Shown: positions 2,350 to 48,041, counted from the first letter of the stretch. The stretch is 64,000 bases of DNA from Escherichia phage vB_EcoM-E33 (OL780484.1), one strand, 5' to 3'. Program-made: numbers and translations. The notes: a model not told the origin generated them from the letters alone.

Positions 2350-2766
2350 ATGACTCGTATCAACCTTACCTTAGTATCTGAATTGGCTGACCAACACTTA
2401 ATGGCTGAATATCGTGAATTACCACGTGTTTTCGGTGCAGTTCGTAAGCATGTTGCTAATGGTAAACGTGTCCGTGATTTCAAAATCAGTCCTACTTTTA
2501 TCCTTGGCACAGGCCATGTTACATTCTTTTACGATAAGCTTGAATTTTTACGTAAGCGACAAATTGAGCTTATAGCCGAATGTTTAAAACGTGGTTTTAA
2601 TATCAAGGATACTACTGTCCAGGACATTAGTGACATTCCTCAGGAATTCCGTGGTGACTATACTCCACACGAAGCTTCTATTGCTATATCTCAGGCCCGT
2701 TTGGACGAAAAAATTGCACAACGCTCTACCTGGTACAAACATTACGGCAAGGCTATTTACGCTTAA
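2350..2766 (+). CDS. denV: endonuclease V (pyrimidine dimer DNA glycosylase)
   Basis: 138 aa; near-identical to remembered T4 endonuclease V ([28 protein letters not shown]...). Confidence 0.95.
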
Positions 2767-2808: not shown

Positions 2809-3168
2809 ATGAAAACTTACCAACAATTTATTACTGAATCTACTCAGCGCATTAACGAAGCTATGTCTCCTGAACAATTGGCTAAGGCCAAAGAAGGGCT
2901 GAACCCATCTGAAGTTTTTAAAGTTACAGGTAAAGACTTTGCTTCCATGGCCACTAACCAGAGCTTGGCTAAAGAACTTAAATCTAAATCTAACTTCATT
3001 CATGCTACATGGAATGGTGATTCTCTTACTTCAATAAGTGTGTACAATAAAAAAGGTCTCCTTAAGAGTTCTTATGGCGCGGATGCCATCCGTGTTTCTA
3101 AATCAGATTGGCATAAAAACACTACTAAAGCAGAAAAACCTCATAACCCGGCACTAGACCATCTTTAA
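2809..3168 (+). CDS. internal head protein (Ip) with capsid targeting sequence
   Basis: N-terminus MKTYQQFITEST; 119 aa; first ~36 nt shared with the next gene. Confidence 0.65.
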   Translation: MKTYQQFITESTQRINEAMSPEQLAKAKEGLNPSEVFKVTGKDFASMATNQSLAKELKSKSNFIHATWNGDSLTSISVYNKKGLLKSSYGADAIRVSKSDWHKNTTKAEKPHNPALDHL

Positions 3169-3176
3169 GGCTTAAT

Positions 3177-3434
3177 ATGAAAACTTACCAAGAATTTATT
3201 ACAGAATCCACTTTAGTTTCTAAACGTTGGAATATGATTGTAAACGTTAAACCTTCCGGCACTGAAGTTTCTATGGCCGACCCTAATGATGACGAACTTG
3301 AGCACGCTTTTAGCTCTAAAGAAACTGACGAGAAAGTGGTTAAGCAACTGGTTGCTGATGCAGATCAACTTCGTAAAGTAGCAGATGTTGTTAAGCTGTT
3401 TACTAAGAAAGGTTTTAAACACGAAGAACGTTAA
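3177..3434 (+). CDS. internal head protein (Ip) with capsid targeting sequence
   Basis: N-terminus MKTYQEFITEST; 85 aa. Confidence 0.65.
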   Translation: MKTYQEFITESTLVSKRWNMIVNVKPSGTEVSMADPNDDELEHAFSSKETDEKVVKQLVADADQLRKVADVVKLFTKKGFKHEER

Positions 3435-3584
3435 TTAGCATTTTTAAATGGGAGCAACCTGGACCTCACAATTCTGTGAGGGACTCCCGCCAACCTGTAA
3501 TAAGGTCGAGCCCAAGTGCGGTAATGGGTAAATGCAGAAAGGGACGAATTAATGTGCCAAGGAACGGCCCTCAAAGGAAATACT
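3435..3584 (+). other. structured non-coding spacer (nested hairpins GGGAG..CCTCAC..GTGAGG..CTCCC)
   Basis: About 150 nt without a convincing ORF; nested inverted repeats; no cloverleaf recognised. Confidence 0.3.
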
Positions 3585-4112
3585 ATGAAATTTTTAACTC
3601 CCATTTATCTAACCTTAATGCACGCCTTCGCTGAACGCGCCATTGAACGTTTAGACTCAGACCAATATACCTGGTATGAACCTGCTTCAAGAATGCAAGA
3701 GTTTGGTACTCTTCGACTTGATGGCGGACGCCAAACAGGTAAAACAAGTGCCCTTGCTCAGTTCGCCGCTGATTGGGTTTCCAAGGGTAATGATGTGATT
3801 GTTATGTCGAGTTCTTCGCATCGCTCGCGAGAAATTTGTAATGTAATAAAACAGGTTTCTAAGGCACACCCACATCTCCAAGTCGAAGGTCCTGGTTTTG
3901 TTGTCTATGATACTGTGCGCAGTTTCCTTGATGAAGACAATTTCCATAAGTATCGTGGACTATCTGTTACTCGATTATTGATTATTATCGAAGAGCCAAT
4001 GCGCCTTCCAGCGATGGATAAGTTCTATGAAGCTTACCAGGTAATGATTAATAAATTTATGTGCCAAGGCGACAAGCCTTTGCCTCTGTTCTTTGTGATA
4101 GGAATGCAATGA
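3585..4112 (+). CDS. hypothetical protein with P-loop-like motif (GGRQTGKTSA)
   Basis: ORF 3552-4112; start placed at ATG 3585 after AAGGAAA SD. Confidence 0.45.
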   Translation: MKFLTPIYLTLMHAFAERAIERLDSDQYTWYEPASRMQEFGTLRLDGGRQTGKTSALAQFAADWVSKGNDVIVMSSSSHRSREICNVIKQVSKAHPHLQVEGPGFVVYDTVRSFLDEDNFHKYRGLSVTRLLIIIEEPMRLPAMDKFYEAYQVMINKFMCQGDKPLPLFFVIGMQ

Positions 4113-4405
4113 TGACTGATGAAGAACTTTTTGAGTTCTGTTATTTCTCACGTAAGGTTCGAAGAGAGGACCTTACTGCAAATTTCGAATATGCTTATTT
4201 CTACCCATTGGAATATGTATTCATGTCAGGGCCCTTTAAGGGCTCTCGTTTTAGATGTCATGCTCCTAGTATCCGATTAATGAAACAGGTTCCTTACTTC
4301 ACTCTCGAGTTCATCTCAGGGCCTTGTAAGGGTATTATTACTCGTAGTCTCTTGACTTATGACCAAGAGATTCATATGATTTCTGACTGGAAAAAATATG
4401 TCTAA
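4109..4405 (+). CDS. hypothetical protein with internal duplicated SGP(F/C)KG motif
   Basis: ATG overlaps upstream stop (ATGA); 98 aa. Confidence 0.4.
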   Translation: MMTDEELFEFCYFSRKVRREDLTANFEYAYFYPLEYVFMSGPFKGSRFRCHAPSIRLMKQVPYFTLEFISGPCKGIITRSLLTYDQEIHMISDWKKYV

Positions 4406-4616: not shown

Positions 4617-4891
4617 TTGAAGATATCAAGGGTTATAAGCCGCATACCGACGATAAAATCGGTAAAGTAAACGCTATCAAAGATGCTGAAGTTCGTCTTG
4701 GGTTAATGTTTAAAGCTCTGGAAGAAGAACATGTTACTCATTATATGAACTTAGATACCGAAGAGGTTTCTGAACAAGAACTAGACCAGGCTCATGAACG
4801 CATCACCCAGATTCGTAATGCAATTGACCGTCTGAAAGAAGCAAGCATGTGGGCGTGTCGTTCCGTTTTCCAACCCGAGGAAAAATACTGA
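4613..4891 (+). CDS. hypothetical protein
   Basis: 92-aa ORF, start overlaps upstream stop. Confidence 0.45.
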   Translation: MIEDIKGYKPHTDDKIGKVNAIKDAEVRLGLMFKALEEEHVTHYMNLDTEEVSEQELDQAHERITQIRNAIDRLKEASMWACRSVFQPEEKY

Positions 4892-5100
4892 TGAAAATTG
4901 AAAGTTTACAAGATTTCCAGCGTATCATCGGTGAAGCCTGTACTGGCTACCACAAATACTTGCTTGACGACCAAATGGCTTGTCTCGAAGAAGGTGAAGT
5001 ACAGTATGCAGCCCAACGCCTTGAACAAGTGAAAGAGTTTTACCCTGTACTGGTAGAAATTTGTTCAGCTGCTGGAAAACTTACCCCATTCCAAGAATAA
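4891..5100 (+). CDS. hypothetical protein
   Basis: 69 aa from ATG overlapping upstream TGA. Confidence 0.4.
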   Translation: MKIESLQDFQRIIGEACTGYHKYLLDDQMACLEEGEVQYAAQRLEQVKEFYPVLVEICSAAGKLTPFQE

Positions 5101-9492: not shown

Positions 9493-9749
9493 TGGCTGTC
9501 GGTTTTGCGAAGGATGGAGCCGAACAGCTCGAAATGGAAGCTGTTGTACAAGCCGCTATCACCCATGCGAGAGCACAAGTGGCTGTTGAACGTGAATCCT
9601 CTGAATTCTGTTTTGACTGCGACGAAAAAATTCCTGAAGCGCGGAGACAAGCGATTAAAGGTGTGATATATTGTGTTGGTTGTCAATCAATGCATGATAA
9701 AATTTTTAAACGTGAGCCACGAAATTGTTGGCACAGGAGCATGAGATGA
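9492..9749 (+). CDS. TraR/DksA-family C4 zinc-finger protein
   Basis: CFDCDEKIPEARRQAIKGVIYCVGCQ matches TraR/DksA zinc-finger signature. Confidence 0.5.
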   Translation: MAVGFAKDGAEQLEMEAVVQAAITHARAQVAVERESSEFCFDCDEKIPEARRQAIKGVIYCVGCQSMHDKIFKREPRNCWHRSMR

Positions 9750-10619: not shown

Positions 10620-11078
10620 ATGATTATCAATGCAAACTCTTGGCATGTTAAACTACATGACCGTTTTTATGCCAGTTATTCACGTCCGCGCTCATTATGC
10701 GCATACTTCTGGAAAATGGTTTGGGCGTGCTTTATATGTTCTGTGCTTGCAGGTAGTACTATTTTCGGCTTAACTGTTGCAGGTGCCGGTATATTGGAGC
10801 AGTTCTTTGTATTGAGTACTCCTGTTGGTTTAAGTTTAGGTTTTATTTTAGGACTGGTTACACTAGCTCTTATTCTAGCGGTAGCCGTTGGTATTGTGTA
10901 TTGTATAATGAATTTATGGTCCTGGTATGATTTACGTAAAGAAGAAAAGGAATGGCTACTAATTAAAGCTAAACGTGAAGGAAAGGAAATTAAAGAAAAT
11001 ATCGTTATTCAATATATCAAAGCTCGTAAATCTAAGGTCTGCCCTGTAATCCACTTCGAGAACAAAACAAACCCATAA
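10620..11078 (+). CDS. hypothetical multi-pass membrane protein
   Basis: 152 aa with several hydrophobic helices. Confidence 0.5.
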   Translation: MIINANSWHVKLHDRFYASYSRPRSLCAYFWKMVWACFICSVLAGSTIFGLTVAGAGILEQFFVLSTPVGLSLGFILGLVTLALILAVAVGIVYCIMNLWSWYDLRKEEKEWLLIKAKREGKEIKENIVIQYIKARKSKVCPVIHFENKTNP

Positions 11079-11842
11079 TGAATTATACCAAGCTTTATGA
11101 TAGTCTAATCCAAAGAGGTAAACTTAGAGGATTAGACAAATCCAAATTAAATTTTTATACAGAGTCCCATCATATACTCCCATCATGTATTGGTGGGAGT
11201 GATGAACCTAATAATTTAGTTCTGTTGACAGCCAGAGAACATTTTATAGCACACTGGCTTCTAGCTAGAATTCATTCTGATTCTTCTGGACTAATTTATG
11301 CTTGGTGGTCGTTTTATAGCTTCGGTGAGGATTCTCTAGGAAGAAATCTTAAACTAACTTCTAGAGGATACCAATTAGTTAGAGAAAAATTTTCAGAAAT
11401 TCATTCAAATGCGATGAAAGAAATATGGAAGACTGAAGAGTATAGAAATAAACGTTCTATAACTATGAGTCTACCGGAAATAAAAGATAAAATGTCTGCC
11501 GCTCAAATAGAAGCTCAAAACCGTCCTGAAGTTAAAGAGAAAATTTCTAAAGCTATTAAAGAAGCATTTAAACGCCCTGATGTTAGAGAAAGGCATTCTA
11601 ATGCTGTTAAGAAATCTCTAAATAATCCGGAAACTAAAAAGAGGCAATCTGATGCTTCTAAAGCAAAGCAAAGAATAGGAAAACATTGGCAAGATTATGA
11701 TTTGCTTTATTCTTTATGGGTTAAATTAAATAGGCCTAAGCGTGGGGCTTTTGGTACTTATATTAGTAAATTAGGATATCCCAAATCTAACTACCAACGT
11801 TTAATTATGCAATTTATTGAAGACTATGAAAGAGGTGAATAA
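11078..11842 (+). CDS. Mob-type HNH homing endonuclease
   Basis: HNH motif ESHHILPSCIGGSDEPNNLVLLTAREH; repeated basic NUMOD-like C-terminal motifs; paralog of 46719-47375; T4 mobD-like position. Confidence 0.7.
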   Translation: MNYTKLYDSLIQRGKLRGLDKSKLNFYTESHHILPSCIGGSDEPNNLVLLTAREHFIAHWLLARIHSDSSGLIYAWWSFYSFGEDSLGRNLKLTSRGYQLVREKFSEIHSNAMKEIWKTEEYRNKRSITMSLPEIKDKMSAAQIEAQNRPEVKEKISKAIKEAFKRPDVRERHSNAVKKSLNNPETKKRQSDASKAKQRIGKHWQDYDLLYSLWVKLNRPKRGAFGTYISKLGYPKSNYQRLIMQFIEDYERGE

Positions 11843-12852
11843 TGAGAACAGTTATGAAGGGATATTTTGGCTCCCACCTTTATGGAACAAGTACTCCGGA
11901 ATCTGATGTCGATTTTAAAGAAATCTTTGTTCCACATCCGCGTGATATTCTGTTAGGTACGGCTATGAACCATACCAACCTGAATACGAATAACACTGCT
12001 TCCAAAAACACTAAAGATGATGTTGACCACGAGCTTTACAGTCTGAAATATTTCTTTAAACTAGCGGCTGATGGCGAAACAGTTGCTTTGGATATGCTCC
12101 ACACTCCACCTGAACTGGTGGTTAAATCTGATTTACCTGATGTATGGAAATTTATCCAGGATAACCGTTCTCGGTTCTATACAACCAACATGAAAGCCTA
12201 TTTAGGGTACGTCCGTAAGCAAGCTTCTAAATATGGTGTTAAGGGTTCTCGTCTGGCTGCTCTGCGTGGTGTACTGGCAATCGTTAACCAGATTCCTGAA
12301 CAGTGGGTTGACTATCAAGAAGGAATCCCTGATAGACTTCGTCGTACTAAGGTAGAAGATATCAAACACAGACTCCCTGAAAATGAGTTCTGTGAATGGG
12401 TATTCCATAACCATGAGAAAACAGGCCCTCAAACGTTCTATACTGTTCTAGGACGTAAGTACCAAACTACTTTGTCTTTAATCGAGCTCAAGCAATCTCT
12501 GAATAAGCTCGATGCTGAATATGGTGAACGTGCCCGTAAAGCTGAAGCTAACGAAGGTATTGACTGGAAAGCTCTGAGCCATGCTTATCGGGCTGGGTAT
12601 CAATTGTTGGAAATCTACCAAACAGGCGACCTGGTATTCCCATTGCGCGAAGCCTCTATCATTAAGCTGATTAAGGCCGGTGAACTTCCATTTAAAGAGG
12701 TCCAAGAACTTCTTGAAGACACTGTTGATTTAGTCGAAGTACTGGCTATCCAGGCTCATAAGAACGGTATGCCTGCTAAGGTAGATATGAAGTTCTGGGA
12801 CAAGTTTGTTGAAGAGGTATACCTTGACAACCACAACTCTTATTATCGATAA
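11842..12852 (+). CDS. Pol-beta-superfamily nucleotidyltransferase-like protein
   Basis: N-terminal GSHLYGTSTPESDVD (GS..YG...SD.D nucleotidyltransferase signature); 336 aa. Confidence 0.45.
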   Translation: MRTVMKGYFGSHLYGTSTPESDVDFKEIFVPHPRDILLGTAMNHTNLNTNNTASKNTKDDVDHELYSLKYFFKLAADGETVALDMLHTPPELVVKSDLPDVWKFIQDNRSRFYTTNMKAYLGYVRKQASKYGVKGSRLAALRGVLAIVNQIPEQWVDYQEGIPDRLRRTKVEDIKHRLPENEFCEWVFHNHEKTGPQTFYTVLGRKYQTTLSLIELKQSLNKLDAEYGERARKAEANEGIDWKALSHAYRAGYQLLEIYQTGDLVFPLREASIIKLIKAGELPFKEVQELLEDTVDLVEVLAIQAHKNGMPAKVDMKFWDKFVEEVYLDNHNSYYR

Positions 12853-12859
12853 CGAAGAA

Positions 12860-13048
12860 ATGAAGGTCTTTTTATCATATGGAAGACCCCATAAAACCCG
12901 ACGTTGGTATCTTGAAGCTGTCTGTAAAGAAACCGGACGTCGAGTCAATATCAAGTACGCATGCAAACCTACGCCTAAACAGACAAGACGATTTGTTAAC
13001 TGGGCTGTAAATGATATCCGCTTCTATAATTTTTGGAGCGCAATTTAG
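12860..13048 (+). CDS. small basic hypothetical protein
   Basis: 62 aa from ATG 12860, just after the nucleotidyltransferase stop. Confidence 0.35.
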   Translation: MKVFLSYGRPHKTRRWYLEAVCKETGRRVNIKYACKPTPKQTRRFVNWAVNDIRFYNFWSAI

Positions 13049-13165: not shown

Positions 13166-13420
13166 ATGAATATTAAAGCACCTTTCGCCGGTAATGTTAT
13201 TCGTGAAGATTCAATCGAAATCAACGGTGTGGTAGTTAAAGCGGTTTTAACTGATATCAAAACCTTGGTTAAAGTTGATTACTTAACCTTTAATTTCGAA
13301 AACATTGAAGGTTATATTAATTTCCCACCAAGCATTAAAATGCATGTACGCCATGAAACTTGGTCTAAAGCAGATCAGCAAAAAGCAGTAGATTTTATTA
13401 TTGAGTTCTTCTCAAAATAA
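13166..13420 (+). CDS. hypothetical protein
   Basis: 84-aa ORF. Confidence 0.45.
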   Translation: MNIKAPFAGNVIREDSIEINGVVVKAVLTDIKTLVKVDYLTFNFENIEGYINFPPSIKMHVRHETWSKADQQKAVDFIIEFFSK

Positions 13421-18465: not shown

Positions 18466-18773
18466 AACAACGTTTAGCTGAAGATATTGCTTCAGCATCT
18501 AATACTGGTTTATTGAAATTTATTAAAGCCGCGGATGTTGAAGTTGAATTGGTTGGTAAAATTCATGGTTGTGATGATTATGATGATGCCGTTAATTGGG
18601 ATGCTGTAATGGCTATGGTCGCACGACGAGAACAAGCTTCTAAGAATGTTCCTAACTGTCCTAAGTGCGGCACAGAACAGGTTCAATTGGTCCATTGGCA
18701 GACTAGTAATCTTCGTTACAAATGCCGCCATTGTAAACATAAATTTGAGCGAGAAGAAAATGGCAAAGCGTAA
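18462..18773 (+). CDS. zinc-ribbon protein
   Basis: CPKCG...17 aa...CRHCKHKF C4 zinc ribbon. Confidence 0.5.
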
Positions 18774-18996
18774 AGAATATGTAGAGGCTGCCGATAAGGC
18801 AGTCCGCGAACTTACTTTAGCTTATTATAAAGAGCATGGTAAATTTCCGGACAGTTATTCAGTATTGAAATCTGCTTTAACTCGCTCGTATAATAATATA
18901 CTATCTGATGTGTATAATTTAAAATATGAGCACATGGAAAAATATGGAACAGAACTTGACCGTTCTGAAGCATTCAAACAAATATTAGGAATTTAA
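18760..18996 (+). CDS. hypothetical protein
   Basis: 78 aa from ATG 18760 ([13 protein letters not shown]). Confidence 0.4.
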
Positions 18997-18997
18997 A

Positions 18998-19261
18998 ATG
19001 TTTAAAGTTTATGGTTATGATTCAAATATTCACCGTTGTGTTTTCTGTGATAATGCCAAACGTCTGCTTGATGTTAAGAAACAACCTTACGAATTCATTA
19101 ACGTGATGCCGGAAAAAGGCGTATTTGATGATGAGAAGATTGCTCAACTCCTGGCTGCGCTTGGTCGCGAATCTCAAATCGGTTTGACCATGCCGCAAGT
19201 ATTTGCCCCTGATGGAAGTCATATTGGTGGCTTTGACCAACTGCGAGCGTATTTCAAATGA
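18998..19261 (+). CDS. nrdC: glutaredoxin-like thioredoxin
   Basis: 87 aa; MFKVYGYDSNIHxCVxCDNAKRLL...GSHIGGFDQLRxYFK matches remembered T4 NrdC. Confidence 0.9.
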   Translation: MFKVYGYDSNIHRCVFCDNAKRLLDVKKQPYEFINVMPEKGVFDDEKIAQLLAALGRESQIGLTMPQVFAPDGSHIGGFDQLRAYFK

Positions 19262-19270
19262 TTGAATTAA
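19253..19270 (+). repeat. 18-bp direct repeat TTCAAATGATTGAATTAA (copy 1)
   Basis: Exact second copy at 19411-19428; each spans a stop/start junction. Confidence 0.7.
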
Positions 19271-19419
19271 TGTTGGTTGTTTTGTATCTTATCATCGGTA
19301 TTGGTTATGCTAAGACCCTAGCTAAATTAGATGATTCAGGTGACTTTTGTTGGTGGTTGACGTCTATGATTTGTTGGCCTTTATTTCTGGTTGGTGCTTC
19401 ATTCTGGAACTTCAAATGA
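19258..19419 (+). CDS. small membrane protein (53 aa)
   Basis: ATG overlaps nrdC stop, own stop overlaps next ATG; hydrophobic; bounded by the 18-bp direct repeats. Confidence 0.4.
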   Translation: MIELMLVVLYLIIGIGYAKTLAKLDDSGDFCWWLTSMICWPLFLVGASFWNFK

Positions 19420-19428
19420 TTGAATTAA
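19411..19428 (+). repeat. 18-bp direct repeat TTCAAATGATTGAATTAA (copy 2)
   Basis: Exact copy of 19253-19270. Confidence 0.7.
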
Positions 19429-19724
19429 ACGAACAAACCATTTTTCTAGGTGATGGTACCGAAGATGACCTGGAATATAAACTATACGAATATATGGTTT
19501 GGTTGGCTAAAGCAGAAGGTATAGACTTTGCTGTAGCCCATCCATATGGCGAGAACACTGTTGTAATCGGCGGCACCGCTTACGAAGTCCAATGGCAATA
19601 CGTTGGCCTTGAATCTGAAGAATTTGAAGAAGATGAACACGGTGATTGGCATCCAGTCGGTCCTTGGTACTGGGAACACGGTGAACCTGATTTTGAAGTA
19701 AGTAGTTGGTGGTGTGACCGTTAA
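19416..19724 (+). CDS. hypothetical acidic protein
   Basis: 102 aa from ATG 19416 (MIELNEQ...). Confidence 0.4.
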   Translation: MIELNEQTIFLGDGTEDDLEYKLYEYMVWLAKAEGIDFAVAHPYGENTVVIGGTAYEVQWQYVGLESEEFEEDEHGDWHPVGPWYWEHGEPDFEVSSWWCDR

Positions 19725-19779
19725 GCCATGGTATGTCGCTCGGTGGGATACGATAGAACCTACCGAGCCAGAGGAACCC

Positions 19780-19809
19780 GTTTACAACGATTCCGAAATA
19801 GAGTATAAT
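19780..19809 (+). promoter_or_regulatory. early promoter GTTTAC-18-TATAAT
   Basis: Consensus -35 and -10 hexamers. Confidence 0.5.
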
Positions 19810-19831
19810 GAACCTTCAAACAATGATTTAA

Positions 19832-20032
19832 TTGATATGGAATATGGGTTTTACTATGAAAACTGAACTGATTTATACTGAAAAGTTAAATGGCGGTAAA
19901 GTCTGGAAACTTCTTATTAAAGGAAGTCCTACTGATCAGTTTATGGCCACTTGTGTAGGGTTATACACCCGTCCTACCAAAAAGATGATTCGTCAATTTA
20001 AACGGTTGCATCGCTCATTTTATAATGTTTAA
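19832..20032 (+). CDS. hypothetical basic protein
   Basis: 66-aa ORF; start uncertain (19832 or 19856). Confidence 0.3.
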   Translation: MIWNMGFTMKTELIYTEKLNGGKVWKLLIKGSPTDQFMATCVGLYTRPTKKMIRQFKRLHRSFYNV

Positions 20033-20070
20033 TAAATACCTATATCTAATTATTATTAAAGGTATAGGTC

Positions 20071-21144
20071 ATGCAAGATTTCGGACATTGGGCGGTATTT
20101 GAAGAAACCGATATTAAAAACCATATTGGATTTGTATACGTAATCACTTTTGAAGATGGCAAAAAATATGTGGGTGCTAAAAAGATTTGGAAACGAATTA
20201 AAGCTGCACCTTGCACATTTAAACGCGGCCCTAAAAAAGGATTTGAAGAATCTGATTGGAAAACCTATACCTCATCATCTAATGAACTAAACGCAATGAT
20301 AGAAAAGGGTATAAGTCCTAAAGAGTACCTTATTGTAGGATGGTATCCTACTTGGGGTAAAACTCTTATGGCAGAAATGGAAATGCAATTAGCCAATGAT
20401 GTTTTACGAGACCCTATGTGGCTTAACAAGCAAATTGGCGGACATTTCAACCCTAACTGCTTTGACGATTTAACCGAAGATGATATTGCAAGATGGATGG
20501 AATTTGATAAAGGGAACGAACATGTTTCCTGGCCTATGATGTACAAAATCGGTCAGAAAACCAAATATGTTAAACCTGACGAAGTTGGCAAGTATATTAA
20601 ATCTGGGTGGCAATTTGGTCGTTCTAAAACAGAAAAACATTCTGTTACCTATAATTGCTCTAAATTTACTATATGGGACTATCAAGAAAATAAAGCAGTG
20701 GAAGTTCTAAATCAAAATGAGTTTGCTCGTAATAATGATTTAAGTAGCAACCATCTAACTAGACTACTTCAAGGAACTCTCGACCTTATTAAAGATCGCT
20801 GGGGACTTCCACCAGATATTGCTCGTCAGCGTTATAAATTTCAGGACGTTTCTTCAGGAACAAAATTTTTATCTAATTCTGAGTTAGAAGAATTTTACGG
20901 TATGACTCGCGGTCAGGCTAACAAAGCCGTTAAAGATGGAAGAGCCGTTAAATTGGTAGTCGAAAGCAAAGAAGACCACATTAAAAAACTTGGCTCTATC
21001 GAATTGGTAAAAACCGAAAAGACAAAAGTTACGTCTCAAGTAATGCTTAACAGTTTTAAAGATATAGTTAATCCTATGACCACTGCCGAAAAATCAGAAA
21101 TGATTGAATGGTTGGAAAGTTATATAACTTATTTGAAATCTTAA
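20071..21144 (+). CDS. GIY-YIG-like (Seg-type) putative homing endonuclease
   Basis: GFVYVITFEDGKKYVGAKK...WKR has GIY-x10-YIG spacing followed by basic residues; 357 aa. Confidence 0.4.
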   Translation: MQDFGHWAVFEETDIKNHIGFVYVITFEDGKKYVGAKKIWKRIKAAPCTFKRGPKKGFEESDWKTYTSSSNELNAMIEKGISPKEYLIVGWYPTWGKTLMAEMEMQLANDVLRDPMWLNKQIGGHFNPNCFDDLTEDDIARWMEFDKGNEHVSWPMMYKIGQKTKYVKPDEVGKYIKSGWQFGRSKTEKHSVTYNCSKFTIWDYQENKAVEVLNQNEFARNNDLSSNHLTRLLQGTLDLIKDRWGLPPDIARQRYKFQDVSSGTKFLSNSELEEFYGMTRGQANKAVKDGRAVKLVVESKEDHIKKLGSIELVKTEKTKVTSQVMLNSFKDIVNPMTTAEKSEMIEWLESYITYLKS

Positions 21145-21160
21145 TGAGGAAATCGCTTAA

Positions 21161-21286
21161 ATGATTAATTTTTATGGCTACACATTTTATGCTTTAGCCG
21201 AATCTCTGAATGATGCGGTGCGTATTATGGGTGTTGAGTATCCTGCTCAATGGTTATTTGTTGTAACTAACATGTGGGTTCTTTAA
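21161..21286 (+). CDS. small hypothetical protein (41 aa)
   Basis: ATG after GAGGAAA SD; stop overlaps next ATG; not in ORF track. Confidence 0.3.
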   Translation: MINFYGYTFYALAESLNDAVRIMGVEYPAQWLFVVTNMWVL

Positions 21287-21501
21287 TGAATAAATTTCGT
21301 AATGCTGTTTCTGATATCCTGGCTAATATAACATTGGTTCTGTTTATCGTATGCCTTTTAATCCTGGCTATTCCGTTTGGATTGCTGTTCATGATTATTG
21401 GTGCTCTGAGTACTGAAAAAGGTCTTGAAGGGTCCGAGTTCGACAAACGAATCCAGGCTGTTCATAGTGTTATTGCAAAAATGATGAAGGTGAAAGAATG
21501 A
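21286..21501 (+). CDS. small membrane protein
   Basis: 71 aa, hydrophobic. Confidence 0.4.
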   Translation: MNKFRNAVSDILANITLVLFIVCLLILAIPFGLLFMIIGALSTEKGLEGSEFDKRIQAVHSVIAKMMKVKE

Positions 21502-21794
21502 AACGTTTTGAAGAATATGTAGCTTTGAATTGGACCGCTTGGGACAAGTTTGGTGATGATTGGTACTTCCATGACTGTGACCTGAACCCTGAATTCTTTA
21601 AAGGTAAGGAAGACGACCTCAAGGACATCTATGCTCTGTCAGAGATTCATGGTATTAAACCTACTGTCTATTTCTCTTTTGATGATACCGGGTTCCTTAT
21701 CCAGATTTACGTCCCATACGGAACTAATGAAGACGAAGTTCTAAAAACTTGGGACTACCAAGGAGTTATTTCCTGTGGACCAAAAGTTAACTAA
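21498..21794 (+). CDS. hypothetical protein
   Basis: 98-aa ORF. Confidence 0.45.
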   Translation: MKRFEEYVALNWTAWDKFGDDWYFHDCDLNPEFFKGKEDDLKDIYALSEIHGIKPTVYFSFDDTGFLIQIYVPYGTNEDEVLKTWDYQGVISCGPKVN

Positions 21795-22092
21795 AATTGA
21801 GATTTACGGTATCCCTGAGACAGTCATGCGCTGTCCAGGGTGCATTGCTGTTCTATCGCTCCTAAATTCCCTTTCTATCCCACATACTTTCTATCCTGTG
21901 ATTAACCAGACGCCGTCAGGCGCAGTATACGACAAGCCTCTTATAGTATCATTGGCCAAACGTGCAGGCTTCAAGAGCTTAGCGATACGCTATCCTGTCA
22001 TATTTGTCGATAATAAGAAAATAGAAAATATTCCTGCCTTCAAATCGCTTTTGATTGAACTTGGTTATGACCAAGATTTAATTGAAGATTAG
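21775..22092 (+). CDS. glutaredoxin/NrdH-like redoxin
   Basis: IYGIP...CPGC CxxC motif and VIFVDNKKIENIP; T4 nrdH-like position upstream of 55. Confidence 0.4.
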   Translation: MDQKLTKIEIYGIPETVMRCPGCIAVLSLLNSLSIPHTFYPVINQTPSGAVYDKPLIVSLAKRAGFKSLAIRYPVIFVDNKKIENIPAFKSLLIELGYDQDLIED

Positions 22093-22093
22093 T

Positions 22094-22145
22094 ATTTACT
22101 TCCTCTCCTCACGTGTTATAGTCTATCCTATCAACACATGAGGAG
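22094..22145 (+). promoter_or_regulatory. early promoter (ATTTAC, TATAGT) with inverted repeat CTCCTCACGTGTT/AACACATGAGGAG covering the SD
   Basis: 13-bp arms with one mismatch flank the -10. Confidence 0.5.
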
Positions 22146-22151
22146 AACATT

Positions 22152-22334
22152 ATGACTATCCAAGATAAAGAAATTAAAGCCGACCAGTATTATTTGGTAA
22201 ATGGCTACCCTGTTCAAGTAACAAAGGTAACAAATCTCGATGTATGGTATCAACCTTTGACTCACCCTGATGCTCCATTGATGGTGTGCGACCGTTCTTT
22301 ATTTTGTTCAGTAGCTAAGGAAATTAAATCATGA
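22152..22334 (+). CDS. hypothetical protein
   Basis: 60-aa ORF. Confidence 0.4.
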   Translation: MTIQDKEIKADQYYLVNGYPVQVTKVTNLDVWYQPLTHPDAPLMVCDRSLFCSVAKEIKS

Positions 22335-43834: not shown

Positions 43835-44038
43835 ATGCCTAAATTAGAGAAAGTAGTGTTTATTGGTTGGTTTGAAAATGGTAATATGTTTACCAAAGAA
43901 ACCGTTCTGGATGTTAGTGACCAAAATATGATTGAATGGGTTACAGTGCAGTATGCAGAAGTGAATAATGCGCTGGTGAAAGCCTTTGTTGATGACAATA
44001 AAGTTTTTGAGTGTGATTACCGTTCTAACGAAAAATAA
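43835..44038 (+). CDS. dmd: Dmd antitoxin (anti-RnlA/LsoA)
   Basis: 67 aa; KVVFxGWFxNxxMFTKE...TQYAEVNxALVKAFxDDxKV matches remembered T4 Dmd; position between 41 and 61. Confidence 0.6.
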   Translation: MPKLEKVVFIGWFENGNMFTKETVLDVSDQNMIEWVTVQYAEVNNALVKAFVDDNKVFECDYRSNEK

Positions 44039-46718: not shown

Positions 46719-47375
46719 ATGAATTACGAAAAAATATACCAGGAATTAATATCTAAAGGAAAATTAAGAGGTTCTAAGCGGTCTTTATCATATTATACGG
46801 AAGAACACCATGTTATACCTAGATGTATGAATGGTTCTGATGATAAAAACAATTTAGTTGCTTTATTGCCAAGAGAACACTTTGTAGCTCATAGGCTTTT
46901 AACAAAAATATATCCCGAAGTAAAAGGTCTACATTATGCTGTTAATTTAATGAGATATAATAAAGGAGTTAAATTAACTAGTAGAACTATAGCCACGTTA
47001 AGAGAAAATAACGCTAAAGCATTTTCAGGAAAAAATAACCCGATGTTTGGTAAACCTTCCTGGATTAGAGGGATGAAAACTCCTGAAGAAACTAAAGCCA
47101 AAATGCGCCTGGCTCATAAAGATAAAATTATATCTGATGAAGCCAAGGCCAATATGAGTAAAGCTAGAAAAGGAAGATTTAGTGGTAAAGATTCCCCTAG
47201 ATATGGTTTGCCGAATCCTAGGCGTGGAGAAATATGGAATAGTTACGATATGCTTTACGAATTATGGGTTTACAATAATAAACCTAAACGCACCAAATTT
47301 AATAAAATAGCTGTTGATAATGGATATCCTGATATTTGTTATCGACGAATGATAGAAAACTTTAATAGGAAATAA
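46719..47375 (+). CDS. Mob-type HNH homing endonuclease
   Basis: HNH motif EEHHVIPRCMNGSDDKNNLVALLPREH; NUMOD3-like GKNNPMFGK; AT-rich; paralog of 11078-11842. Confidence 0.7.
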   Translation: MNYEKIYQELISKGKLRGSKRSLSYYTEEHHVIPRCMNGSDDKNNLVALLPREHFVAHRLLTKIYPEVKGLHYAVNLMRYNKGVKLTSRTIATLRENNAKAFSGKNNPMFGKPSWIRGMKTPEETKAKMRLAHKDKIISDEAKANMSKARKGRFSGKDSPRYGLPNPRRGEIWNSYDMLYELWVYNNKPKRTKFNKIAVDNGYPDICYRRMIENFNRK

Positions 47376-47901: not shown

Positions 47902-48041
47902 TGCCTCGTTTAAATAAACGTCAACTAAAAAAGTTGAATAAGAAAAGGGCGAAAGCCTTTACTGCCTTATTACGTAATGAAATAACTAAAGAAATAGACC
48001 AAGAGATTATTGAACAACTTTGGAAAGCCGCCAAATTGTAA
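47901..48041 (+). CDS. small basic hypothetical protein (46 aa)
   Basis: TAATG overlap with gp56 stop; not in ORF track. Confidence 0.3.
   Translation: MPRLNKRQLKKLNKKRAKAFTALLRNEITKEIDQEIIEQLWKAAKL

Follow-up and report, generated by a model that had tools for sequence, protein, structure and literature searches.

In the window (the whole 64,000-nucleotide stretch of DNA that was analysed, from Escherichia phage vB_EcoM-E33, OL780484.1), the ORF for a 357-aa GIY-YIG nuclease occupies the exact place in which close relatives carry gene 49, and we propose, with a probability of roughly 0.6, that this ORF stands in for endonuclease VII (gp49), the branched-DNA nuclease, in this phage. For the packaging of T4 DNA endonuclease VII, the textbook example of a phage Holliday-junction resolvase, is essential: gp49 frees DNA that has been replicated and recombined from Holliday junctions and other branches. 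The features of the locus are the following:

18998–19261, + strand: nrdC (thioredoxin), the upstream landmark (82.8% identity to S16 NrdC; relatives' annotations)
20030–20038, + strand: T4 late-promoter-like motif TAATAAATA, with 7/8 matches to TATAAATA
20054–21144, + strand: replacement cassette of 1091 bp, delimited by blastn against WG01
20071–21144, + strand: GIY-YIG nuclease ORF, 357 aa, in the gene-49 (endonuclease VII) slot (ORF list, Pfam PF19835, PHROG 7363)
20098–20436, + strand: GIY-YIG catalytic domain, aa 10–122 (PF19835 profile match)
20476–20574, + strand: flexible linker, aa 136–168 (low model confidence; in-frame gap in the relative P0002)
20575–21081, + strand: family-specific middle region, aa ~169–337, with beta-hairpin/helix modules
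21082–21141, + strand: C-terminal helix, aa 338–357 (the model shows a helix at 338–356)
21103–21141, + strand: tail IEWLESYITYLKS, the last 13 residues, homologous to endonuclease VII residues 85–97
21145–21164, + strand: relic of the gene-49 3' end, TGAGGAAATCGCTTAAATGA (junction comparison with WG01)
21775–22092, + strand: nrdH-like glutaredoxin, the downstream landmark (S16 NrdH tblastn match at 21790–22077; relatives' annotations)

Replacement of gene 49 in the nrdC–nrdH interval

The Dhakavirus phages JS98, Bp7, and WG01 (T-even group) are 92–99.8% identical to the window region, and the 357-aa protein itself recurs as a 100% identical copy in phage 04086 and at 99.7% identity in ABTNLS3. 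Gene 49 is found between nrdC and nrdH in WG01, QL01, and JS98, which arrangement bears out the proposal, made earlier from the sequence alone, that the ORF lies where T4 relatives keep that gene. According to blastn, window 19000–20053 corresponds to positions 1601–2663 of the WG01 locus (L001) at 98.5% identity and window 21145–22300 to positions 3132–4287 at 99.8%, the 1091 bp in between (20054–21144) taking the place of the 468 bp that bear gene 49 in WG01. There are no mismatches to WG01 over 18550–19900 or over 21145–22150, while the cassette has no match in the complete WG01 genome and differs from ABTNLS3 by 0–2 mismatches per 150 nt; the window therefore combines a WG01-type backbone with an ABTNLS3-type cassette, the left crossover lying at the most ~150 nt from the GIY gene.

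Straight after the TAA of the ORF come the codons with which gene 49 ends (...L-R-K-S-L-K-stop), a 3' end that is retained because it carries the ribosome-binding site and, at 21161, the ATG of the downstream gene. The upstream flank common to both alleles contains the promoter-like motif, which is found ~30–40 nt 5' of the start codon in gp49 and GIY alleles alike, in Dhakavirus as well as in Pseudotevenvirus (window 20030–20038; L001 ~2640; L023 ~2469; L024 ~2751), and which is likely to be a conserved late promoter of the gene-49 slot. A second pair of alleles is formed by Cronuts (GIY) and SemperBestia (gp49), whose left flanks are 97.9% identical up to ~17 nt before the start codon, and there the GIY ORF of Cronuts ends in its lineage's own gene-49 codons AAG GCA ACG AAA TGA (K-A-T-K-stop); RB16 (GIY) and RB43 (gp49) constitute a further independent pair. 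We regard the cassette and gene 49 as interchangeable alleles, which recombination in the flanking DNA carries from one related phage to another. The GC content of the cassette is 0.32–0.38 versus 0.40–0.445 in the flanking genes (19400–19800 and 21400–22000), a small difference that is consistent with a foreign origin.

Gene 49 itself was found neither in the window nor in two complete related genomes. When WG01, JS98, and T4 gp49 were used as tblastn queries, only the 13-residue tail (gp49 residues 85–97) was matched in the window; the best match in the complete 171-kb genome of ABTNLS3, the closest relative with an intact ORF, was likewise that tail (WG01 control, E = 1e-105), and none was obtained in the complete S16 genome. 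Moreover, no resolvase is annotated in either ABTNLS3 or S16. The sequence-only reading had noted the lack of pin, 49, and the anaerobic ribonucleotide-reductase genes in the window, which observation we could confirm, in that neither pin nor nrdD nor nrdG is present there; and the whole-genome check that it proposed found gene 49, nrdD, and nrdG, along with pin, to be absent from complete ABTNLS3 as well. The Dhakavirus type represented by the window and ABTNLS3, in lacking nrdD and nrdG, has no anaerobic ribonucleotide reductase, and pin is present in the nrdC–nrdH interval of JS98 and Bp7.

Two other loci were considered and discarded. A weak gp49 match at window 2515–2652 proved to be denV and not gene 49: denV (T4 endonuclease V; 2350–2766, + strand) is weakly similar over residues ~56–101 to the C-terminal domain of endonuclease VII (tblastn E = 0.006 with T4 gp49 aa 105–153), which likeness may be a matter of chance or of a distant shared helical motif. 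In the whole-genome comparison only two segments were common to ABTNLS3 and the window and missing from WG01, namely the cassette and a Mob-type gene (46719–47375, + strand; 218 aa, with a weak HNH match plus NUMOD3) located directly 5' of gene 56 (dCTPase) and 100% identical in ABTNLS3. This Mob-type gene was rejected as the true gp49 substitute, since S16 has no ortholog at that locus. A second Mob-type HNH ORF, a paralog of the former (11078–11842, + strand; 254 aa), lies beside an nrdC.11-like gene in a segment missing from WG01 and ABTNLS3 alike; and seven shorter stretches of 137–330 nt are also without a WG01 match (355–684, 4890–5091, 9503–9725, 12847–13046, 13167–13412, 43856–44031, and 47902–48038).

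Domain architecture and the endonuclease VII-like tail

The N-terminal part of the protein (aa 10–122) gives a PF19835 match of 116.7 bits (E = 9.5e-34; curated cutoff 25), and the GIY-YIG alpha/beta fold is present, so that the earlier assignment to the Seg/I-Tev lineage of GIY-YIG nucleases, with a long extension at the C-terminus, is upheld. The GIY/YIG hairpin, with its spacing of ~10 residues, is represented by V-Y23-V and Y33-V-G35. In the 43 family sequences 33 residues are invariant, the catalytic Tyr, Glu, and Asn among them: Tyr23, Tyr33, Gly35, Lys37/38, Glu102, and Asn119 belong to that set. The position of the usual catalytic Arg, as assigned from the alignment, has no conserved Arg, Lys37 and Lys38 being invariant, Lys41 nearly so, and Arg42 variable. 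In the profile search suggested along with that assignment, neither PF02945 nor PF09124, the dimerisation domain, was matched in the 357-aa protein, nor did we find the HNH/beta-beta-alpha-metal fold, the Cys4 zinc site, or counterparts of D40/H41/H43/N62. The protein does not belong with SLX1 either: SLX1 proteins are not its nearest neighbours and it has no C-terminal RING domain.

The head is followed by a predicted flexible linker, whose model confidence is low (pLDDT 58–62, and below 50 at aa 148–151). The protein P0002 of phage vB_EcoM_005 differs from that of the window, in BLASTP, by a single in-frame gap of 33 aa at positions 136–168 and is otherwise identical, and this deletion, the sole length variant among the close relatives, is confined to the linker between the head and the middle region. 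The latter (aa ~169–337) is probably DNA-binding, and an I-HmuI-like module was found in the protein. Over aa 7–148 the head is 29% identical to the I-TevII-type endonuclease of the nrdD intron of phage F1, likewise a PF19835 protein, while the middle and C-terminal region was found solely in combination with the present GIY head. The family is small: an exhaustive profile search through 1.84 billion representatives gave 19 matches below 1e-30. Searches of the PDB by Foldseek with the full-length model and by sequence with the 357-aa protein, as well as of NCBIfam, returned nothing useful.

The likeness of the last 13 residues to endonuclease VII, which the sequence-only reading had left as either a coincidence or a fusion remnant, is by itself slight (tblastn E ~ 0.05–0.45). 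There exist, however, longer relatives, the chimeras P0023–P0025 (427–499 aa), that carry both PF19835 and PF09124, with E values between 1e-11 and 5e-16. The BLASTP alignments of P0023 and P0025 cover 99% of the window protein; residues 359–430 of P0024 are 47% identical to gp49 residues 86–157 over 72 aa (E = 1e-18), and the same protein aligns to residues 84–157 of PDB 1E7L/2QNC (E = 1.4e-14). In a multiple alignment the tail is colinear with the helix of the chimeras, which helix runs on into the endonuclease VII C-terminal domain, and with gp49 LEWLENLLVYLKA; and the motif W-x-x-x-Y-x-x-Y-L is kept throughout the 357-aa forms. In view of this colinearity and of the family-wide motif, the resemblance is real homology. 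P0024 and P0025 are also located in the gene-49 slot. The C-terminal region of P0025 (contig L012, 8001–9500; 499 aa) that resembles endonuclease VII contains an insertion of ~70 residues between two PF09124 stretches, and on the same contig an I-HmuI/NUMOD-like endonuclease gene splits nrdD.

While the homology is genuine, the notion of a fusion remnant generated locally did not hold for the tail. At the DNA level the tail is no closer to the gene 49 of its own lineage (25/39 and 21/39 identical positions for the lineage-matched comparisons) than to that of the other lineage (22/39 and 20/39). What gene 49 did leave behind locally is the stretch of 20 nt that follows the stop codon (21145–21164). 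We interpret the tail as an old, family-wide feature that would trace to the GIY-YIG/endonuclease VII chimeras. That the 357-aa form arose from a chimera which lost the DNA between ATTTAAAA repeats was considered and put aside, codons 94–97 of WG01 reading TAT CTG AAA, and the idea of such a repeat deletion is speculation. The two subunits of endonuclease VII are intertwined in an antiparallel dimer, with the N-terminus of one touching the C-terminus of the other (PMC10956419); therefore, the part retained belongs to the dimer architecture.

Mutual exclusivity, distribution, and conservation

Co-occurrence was assessed with concatenated queries composed of the GIY protein plus either gp49 or the gp49 catalytic core; because the GIY protein alone gives one place per record, a second place, or coverage of the gp49 part, would indicate co-occurrence. 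A single matched place, covering the GIY part only, was obtained in 45 of 45 records with a full-length member and in all 15 Vibrio-phage records with a short member of 41% identity. The endonuclease VII catalytic domain is accordingly missing from 60 of the 60 carrier records, and gp49 is carried by ~1,380 other records. An apparent instance of a GIY homing endonuclease beside an intact gene 49 in Tequatrovirus turned out to be I-TevII in the nrdD intron, which has only the nuclease head in common with the family.

The sole partial exception is PSD2001 (Gaprivervirus), in which nothing but a dead C-terminal fragment of gene 49 persists. There the order is the GIY gene, a 34-nt gene-49 3' end of Dhakavirus type, ~25 codons of the Dhakavirus downstream gene containing an in-frame stop, codons 118–157 of the resident gene 49, and nrdD; the fossil occupies L022 3540–3776, and the resident codons are annotated as a 46-aa 'endonuclease VII'. 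The mosaic is the footprint of a cassette that came with donor flanks and inserted itself within gene 49.

Members of the family, of ~357–360 aa in the corresponding position of several lineages, occupy the slot between nrdC and nrdD or nrdH in Dhakavirus, Gelderlandvirus (S16), Gaprivervirus, Pseudotevenvirus (RB16, leE, and Cronuts), Acinetobacter phage Ac42, and metagenomic T4-like phages. The S16 member is directly 5' of nrdD, its stop overlapping the nrdD start; that of Ac42 is two genes upstream of nrdH; and those of leE, RB16, and Cronuts follow nrdC upstream of nrdD, which gene they abut in RB16 and Cronuts. Among the short relatives of 269–290 aa on metagenomic T4-like contigs, P0044 comes after an NrdC-like gene and P0031 lies upstream of a 55.x-47-46 block. 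Among closely related genomes the gene is present in ABTNLS3, FB, Bp7, PSD9, LQ5, 04086, and 005, and absent from WG01, QL01, JS98, and most other records of Dhakavirus.

This sporadic presence in close genomes, as is typical of Seg-type genes, leads to the main alternative, namely that of an ordinary selfish, free-standing homing endonuclease of that type whose homing into the gene-49 region put an end to gene 49; debranching would then be either dispensable or else performed by host RuvC or RusA, by the terminase nuclease, or by an unrecognised phage protein. The seg and mob genes are promoter-less cassettes that depend on host signals (Edgell et al., PMC2988022). The head of the SegE/I-TevII subfamily, the I-HmuI-like module, the label 'homing endonuclease' that the databases attach to the protein, and the patchiness among close relatives, where at least 80% of a query consisting of the gene plus its flanks is covered in 7 of the 223 matching records, all fit such an origin, as does the insertion in gene 49 of PSD2001 with donor flanking DNA, as in co-conversion; the closeness of the left crossover of the window to the gene (~150 nt or less) would be indirectly in line with a spread by double-strand-break repair.

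Homing endonuclease genes, however, normally adjoin an intact, cleavage-immune target gene, and gp49 is retained in none of the 60 carriers, the functional target having been replaced. Furthermore, none of the listed records of Gelderlandvirus (S16-like) or Tegunavirus is without the GIY protein, whose conservation resembles that of a core gene: the window and S16 copies are 72.7% identical, whereas 39 syntenic orthologs have a median identity of 61%, and the protein thereby exceeds DNA polymerase gp43 (61%) along with gp46 (68%) and UvsX (70%), gp55 being at 74%. Not even the deletion in phage 005 disturbs the reading frame; a selfish element would have no evident need for the endonuclease VII dimerisation domain kept in the chimeras; and the GIY-type genomes have no other candidate substitute in common. 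We consequently regard the selfish origin and the attendant loss of gene 49 as unlikely. The sequence-only reading had by implication taken the ORF for an ordinary Seg/I-TevI-type homing endonuclease inserted in the region, and that part of it is not supported as stated, since co-occurrence was never seen and the conservation is core-like; most likely, the 357-aa protein is a replacement of gene 49 rather than a bystander.

An even less favoured possibility, which we consider very improbable, is that the gene is the decaying, non-functional remnant of an old invasion with no current role. The Bp7 copy (L002 3138–4210; DNA ~98% identical) is annotated as two ORFs, and one may also point to the 33-aa deletion of phage 005 and to the existence of shorter relatives of 260–320 aa. 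The split in Bp7 stems from three 1-nt deletions at ORF positions ~773, 912, and 938 that jointly restore the frame and are most likely homopolymer sequencing errors, for which reason we discarded it as a sign of dispensability, and the 005 deletion is in frame and does not extend beyond the disordered linker. All the other carriers have an intact ORF, and the invariance of 33 residues as well as the 57–73% identity maintained between genera are likewise at odds with decay. That the nuclease has some other dedicated role, such as the degradation of host DNA or the exclusion of competing phages, at a locus that would be coincidental, we also consider improbable, if less so than decay, for it would leave unexplained why the gene and gp49 strictly exclude each other, why the replacement is precise, and how the endonuclease VII-derived C-terminus and the chimeras came about.

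Proposed role, origin, and precedents

As a replacement of endonuclease VII, the protein would have the zinc-bound HNH catalytic half of gp49 exchanged for a GIY-YIG head of the SegE/I-TevII lineage, this head being joined to a family-specific DNA-binding region and to an end helix from endonuclease VII residues ~84–97. Expressed from gene 49's own upstream signals, and so presumably late, it would bind branched DNA, probably as a dimer, and nick the strands with a one-metal GIY-YIG active site (Tyr23, Tyr33, Lys37/38, Glu102, and Asn119), much as the dimeric plant resolvase At-HIGLE does, thereby clearing the junctions before packaging as a functional analog of endonuclease VII; such a protein would be expected to be essential. 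In comparison with T4 endonuclease VII (PF02945 plus PF09124; PDB 1EN7, 1E7L, and 2QNC), the slot, the upstream and downstream signals, and the presumed role in debranching before packaging are the same, and the helix that precedes the endonuclease VII C-terminal domain has its homolog in the C-terminal helix of the 357-aa protein; by contrast, the T4 enzyme is 157 aa long, with an HNH/zinc domain at residues ~10–73, and catalysis in the 357-aa protein, which possesses neither that domain nor PF09124, would use a fold unrelated to that of endonuclease VII.

The presence of the whole endonuclease VII dimerisation domain in the longer relatives suggests that the family began as a GIY-YIG/endonuclease VII chimera at the gene-49 locus. 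In T4-type genomes the nrdD intron of I-TevII lies immediately downstream of gene 49. The simplest history, in our view, would comprise three steps: the 3' half of gene 49 would have been joined to a Seg/I-TevII-type gene, giving the chimeras; the dimerisation domain would later have been trimmed to one helix; and the cassette and gene 49 would since then have been exchanged repeatedly by recombination in the conserved flanks. I-TevII and SegE (PF19835) share with the 357-aa protein the GIY-YIG subfamily and probably the build of a nuclease head with a DNA-binding tail, and I-TevII is encoded beside gene 49, though the middle and C-terminal regions are unrelated; unlike those enzymes, the 357-aa protein is neither intronic nor intergenic, replaces an essential gene with which it never co-occurs, and is highly conserved.

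A bolder version, to which we assign little likelihood, is that the cassette is a self-propagating replacement of an essential gene, substituting for endonuclease VII and at the same time cutting competitors at or near gene 49 in co-infection, whereupon repair would copy the cassette. Such a swap of an essential enzyme, akin to a natural gene drive, would account for the fact that gene 49 has been replaced repeatedly and precisely in several T4-like genera, for the gene-49 3' ends that are each lineage's own, and for the donor-flank footprint of PSD2001.

To our knowledge, GIY-YIG junction-resolving enzymes have so far been described in eukaryotes only (SLX1 and HIGLE). These enzymes indicate that junction resolution by a GIY-YIG active site is possible: SLX1 resolves Holliday junctions, and so does the plant At-HIGLE, whose C-terminal region holds the resolving homodimer together (PMC9071465), an arrangement that, by analogy, we propose for the 357-aa protein as well. 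In F-CphI of cyanophage S-PM2 an endonuclease VII catalytic motif is used as a homing endonuclease (PMC6083498); that enzyme would be the mirror image of the present case, where the catalytic domain of a homing endonuclease appears to do the work of endonuclease VII, and both bear witness to a traffic between endonuclease VII and homing endonucleases in T4-like phages.

The replacement of gp49 has been remarked upon before, in a one-line genomic inference, by Petrov et al., who mention a 'putative alternative nuclease' in RB16 (RB16ORF270c) and in Aeromonas phage 65 (PMC2993671). The family member RB16p243, 57% identical and situated between nrdC and nrdD of RB16, is the only nuclease in the slot, in which RB43 has gene 49, and is very probably the protein meant, although the old ORF number is not mappable with certainty to today's locus tags; RB16p270, a membrane protein with no nuclease signature and missing from the window, ABTNLS3, and S16, was rejected. 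According to the ZZ1 paper, gene 49 is one of those that the five Acinetobacter T4-likes do not all have in common, and Ac42 and 133 possess a lone 'I-TevI-like GIY-YIG' gene, which is not connected there to gene 49 (PMC4177764). Our literature search found no paper on the chimeras, the exclusivity, the allele pairs, or the biochemistry of the family, and nothing useful on a phage GIY-YIG resolvase or on PF19835.

The near-isogenic allele pairs (the window or ABTNLS3 versus WG01, and Cronuts versus SemperBestia) render the proposal directly testable. If it is true, a widespread annotation as 'homing endonuclease' or 'hypothetical protein' would be corrected, for example in the therapeutic-phage genome S16; phages would be found to have a GIY-YIG class of junction-resolving enzymes, in at least six T4-like lineages; and the family would clearly exemplify the domestication of a selfish nuclease through its fusion with the very gene that it invaded, with the intermediates, in the form of chimeras and fossils, still extant.
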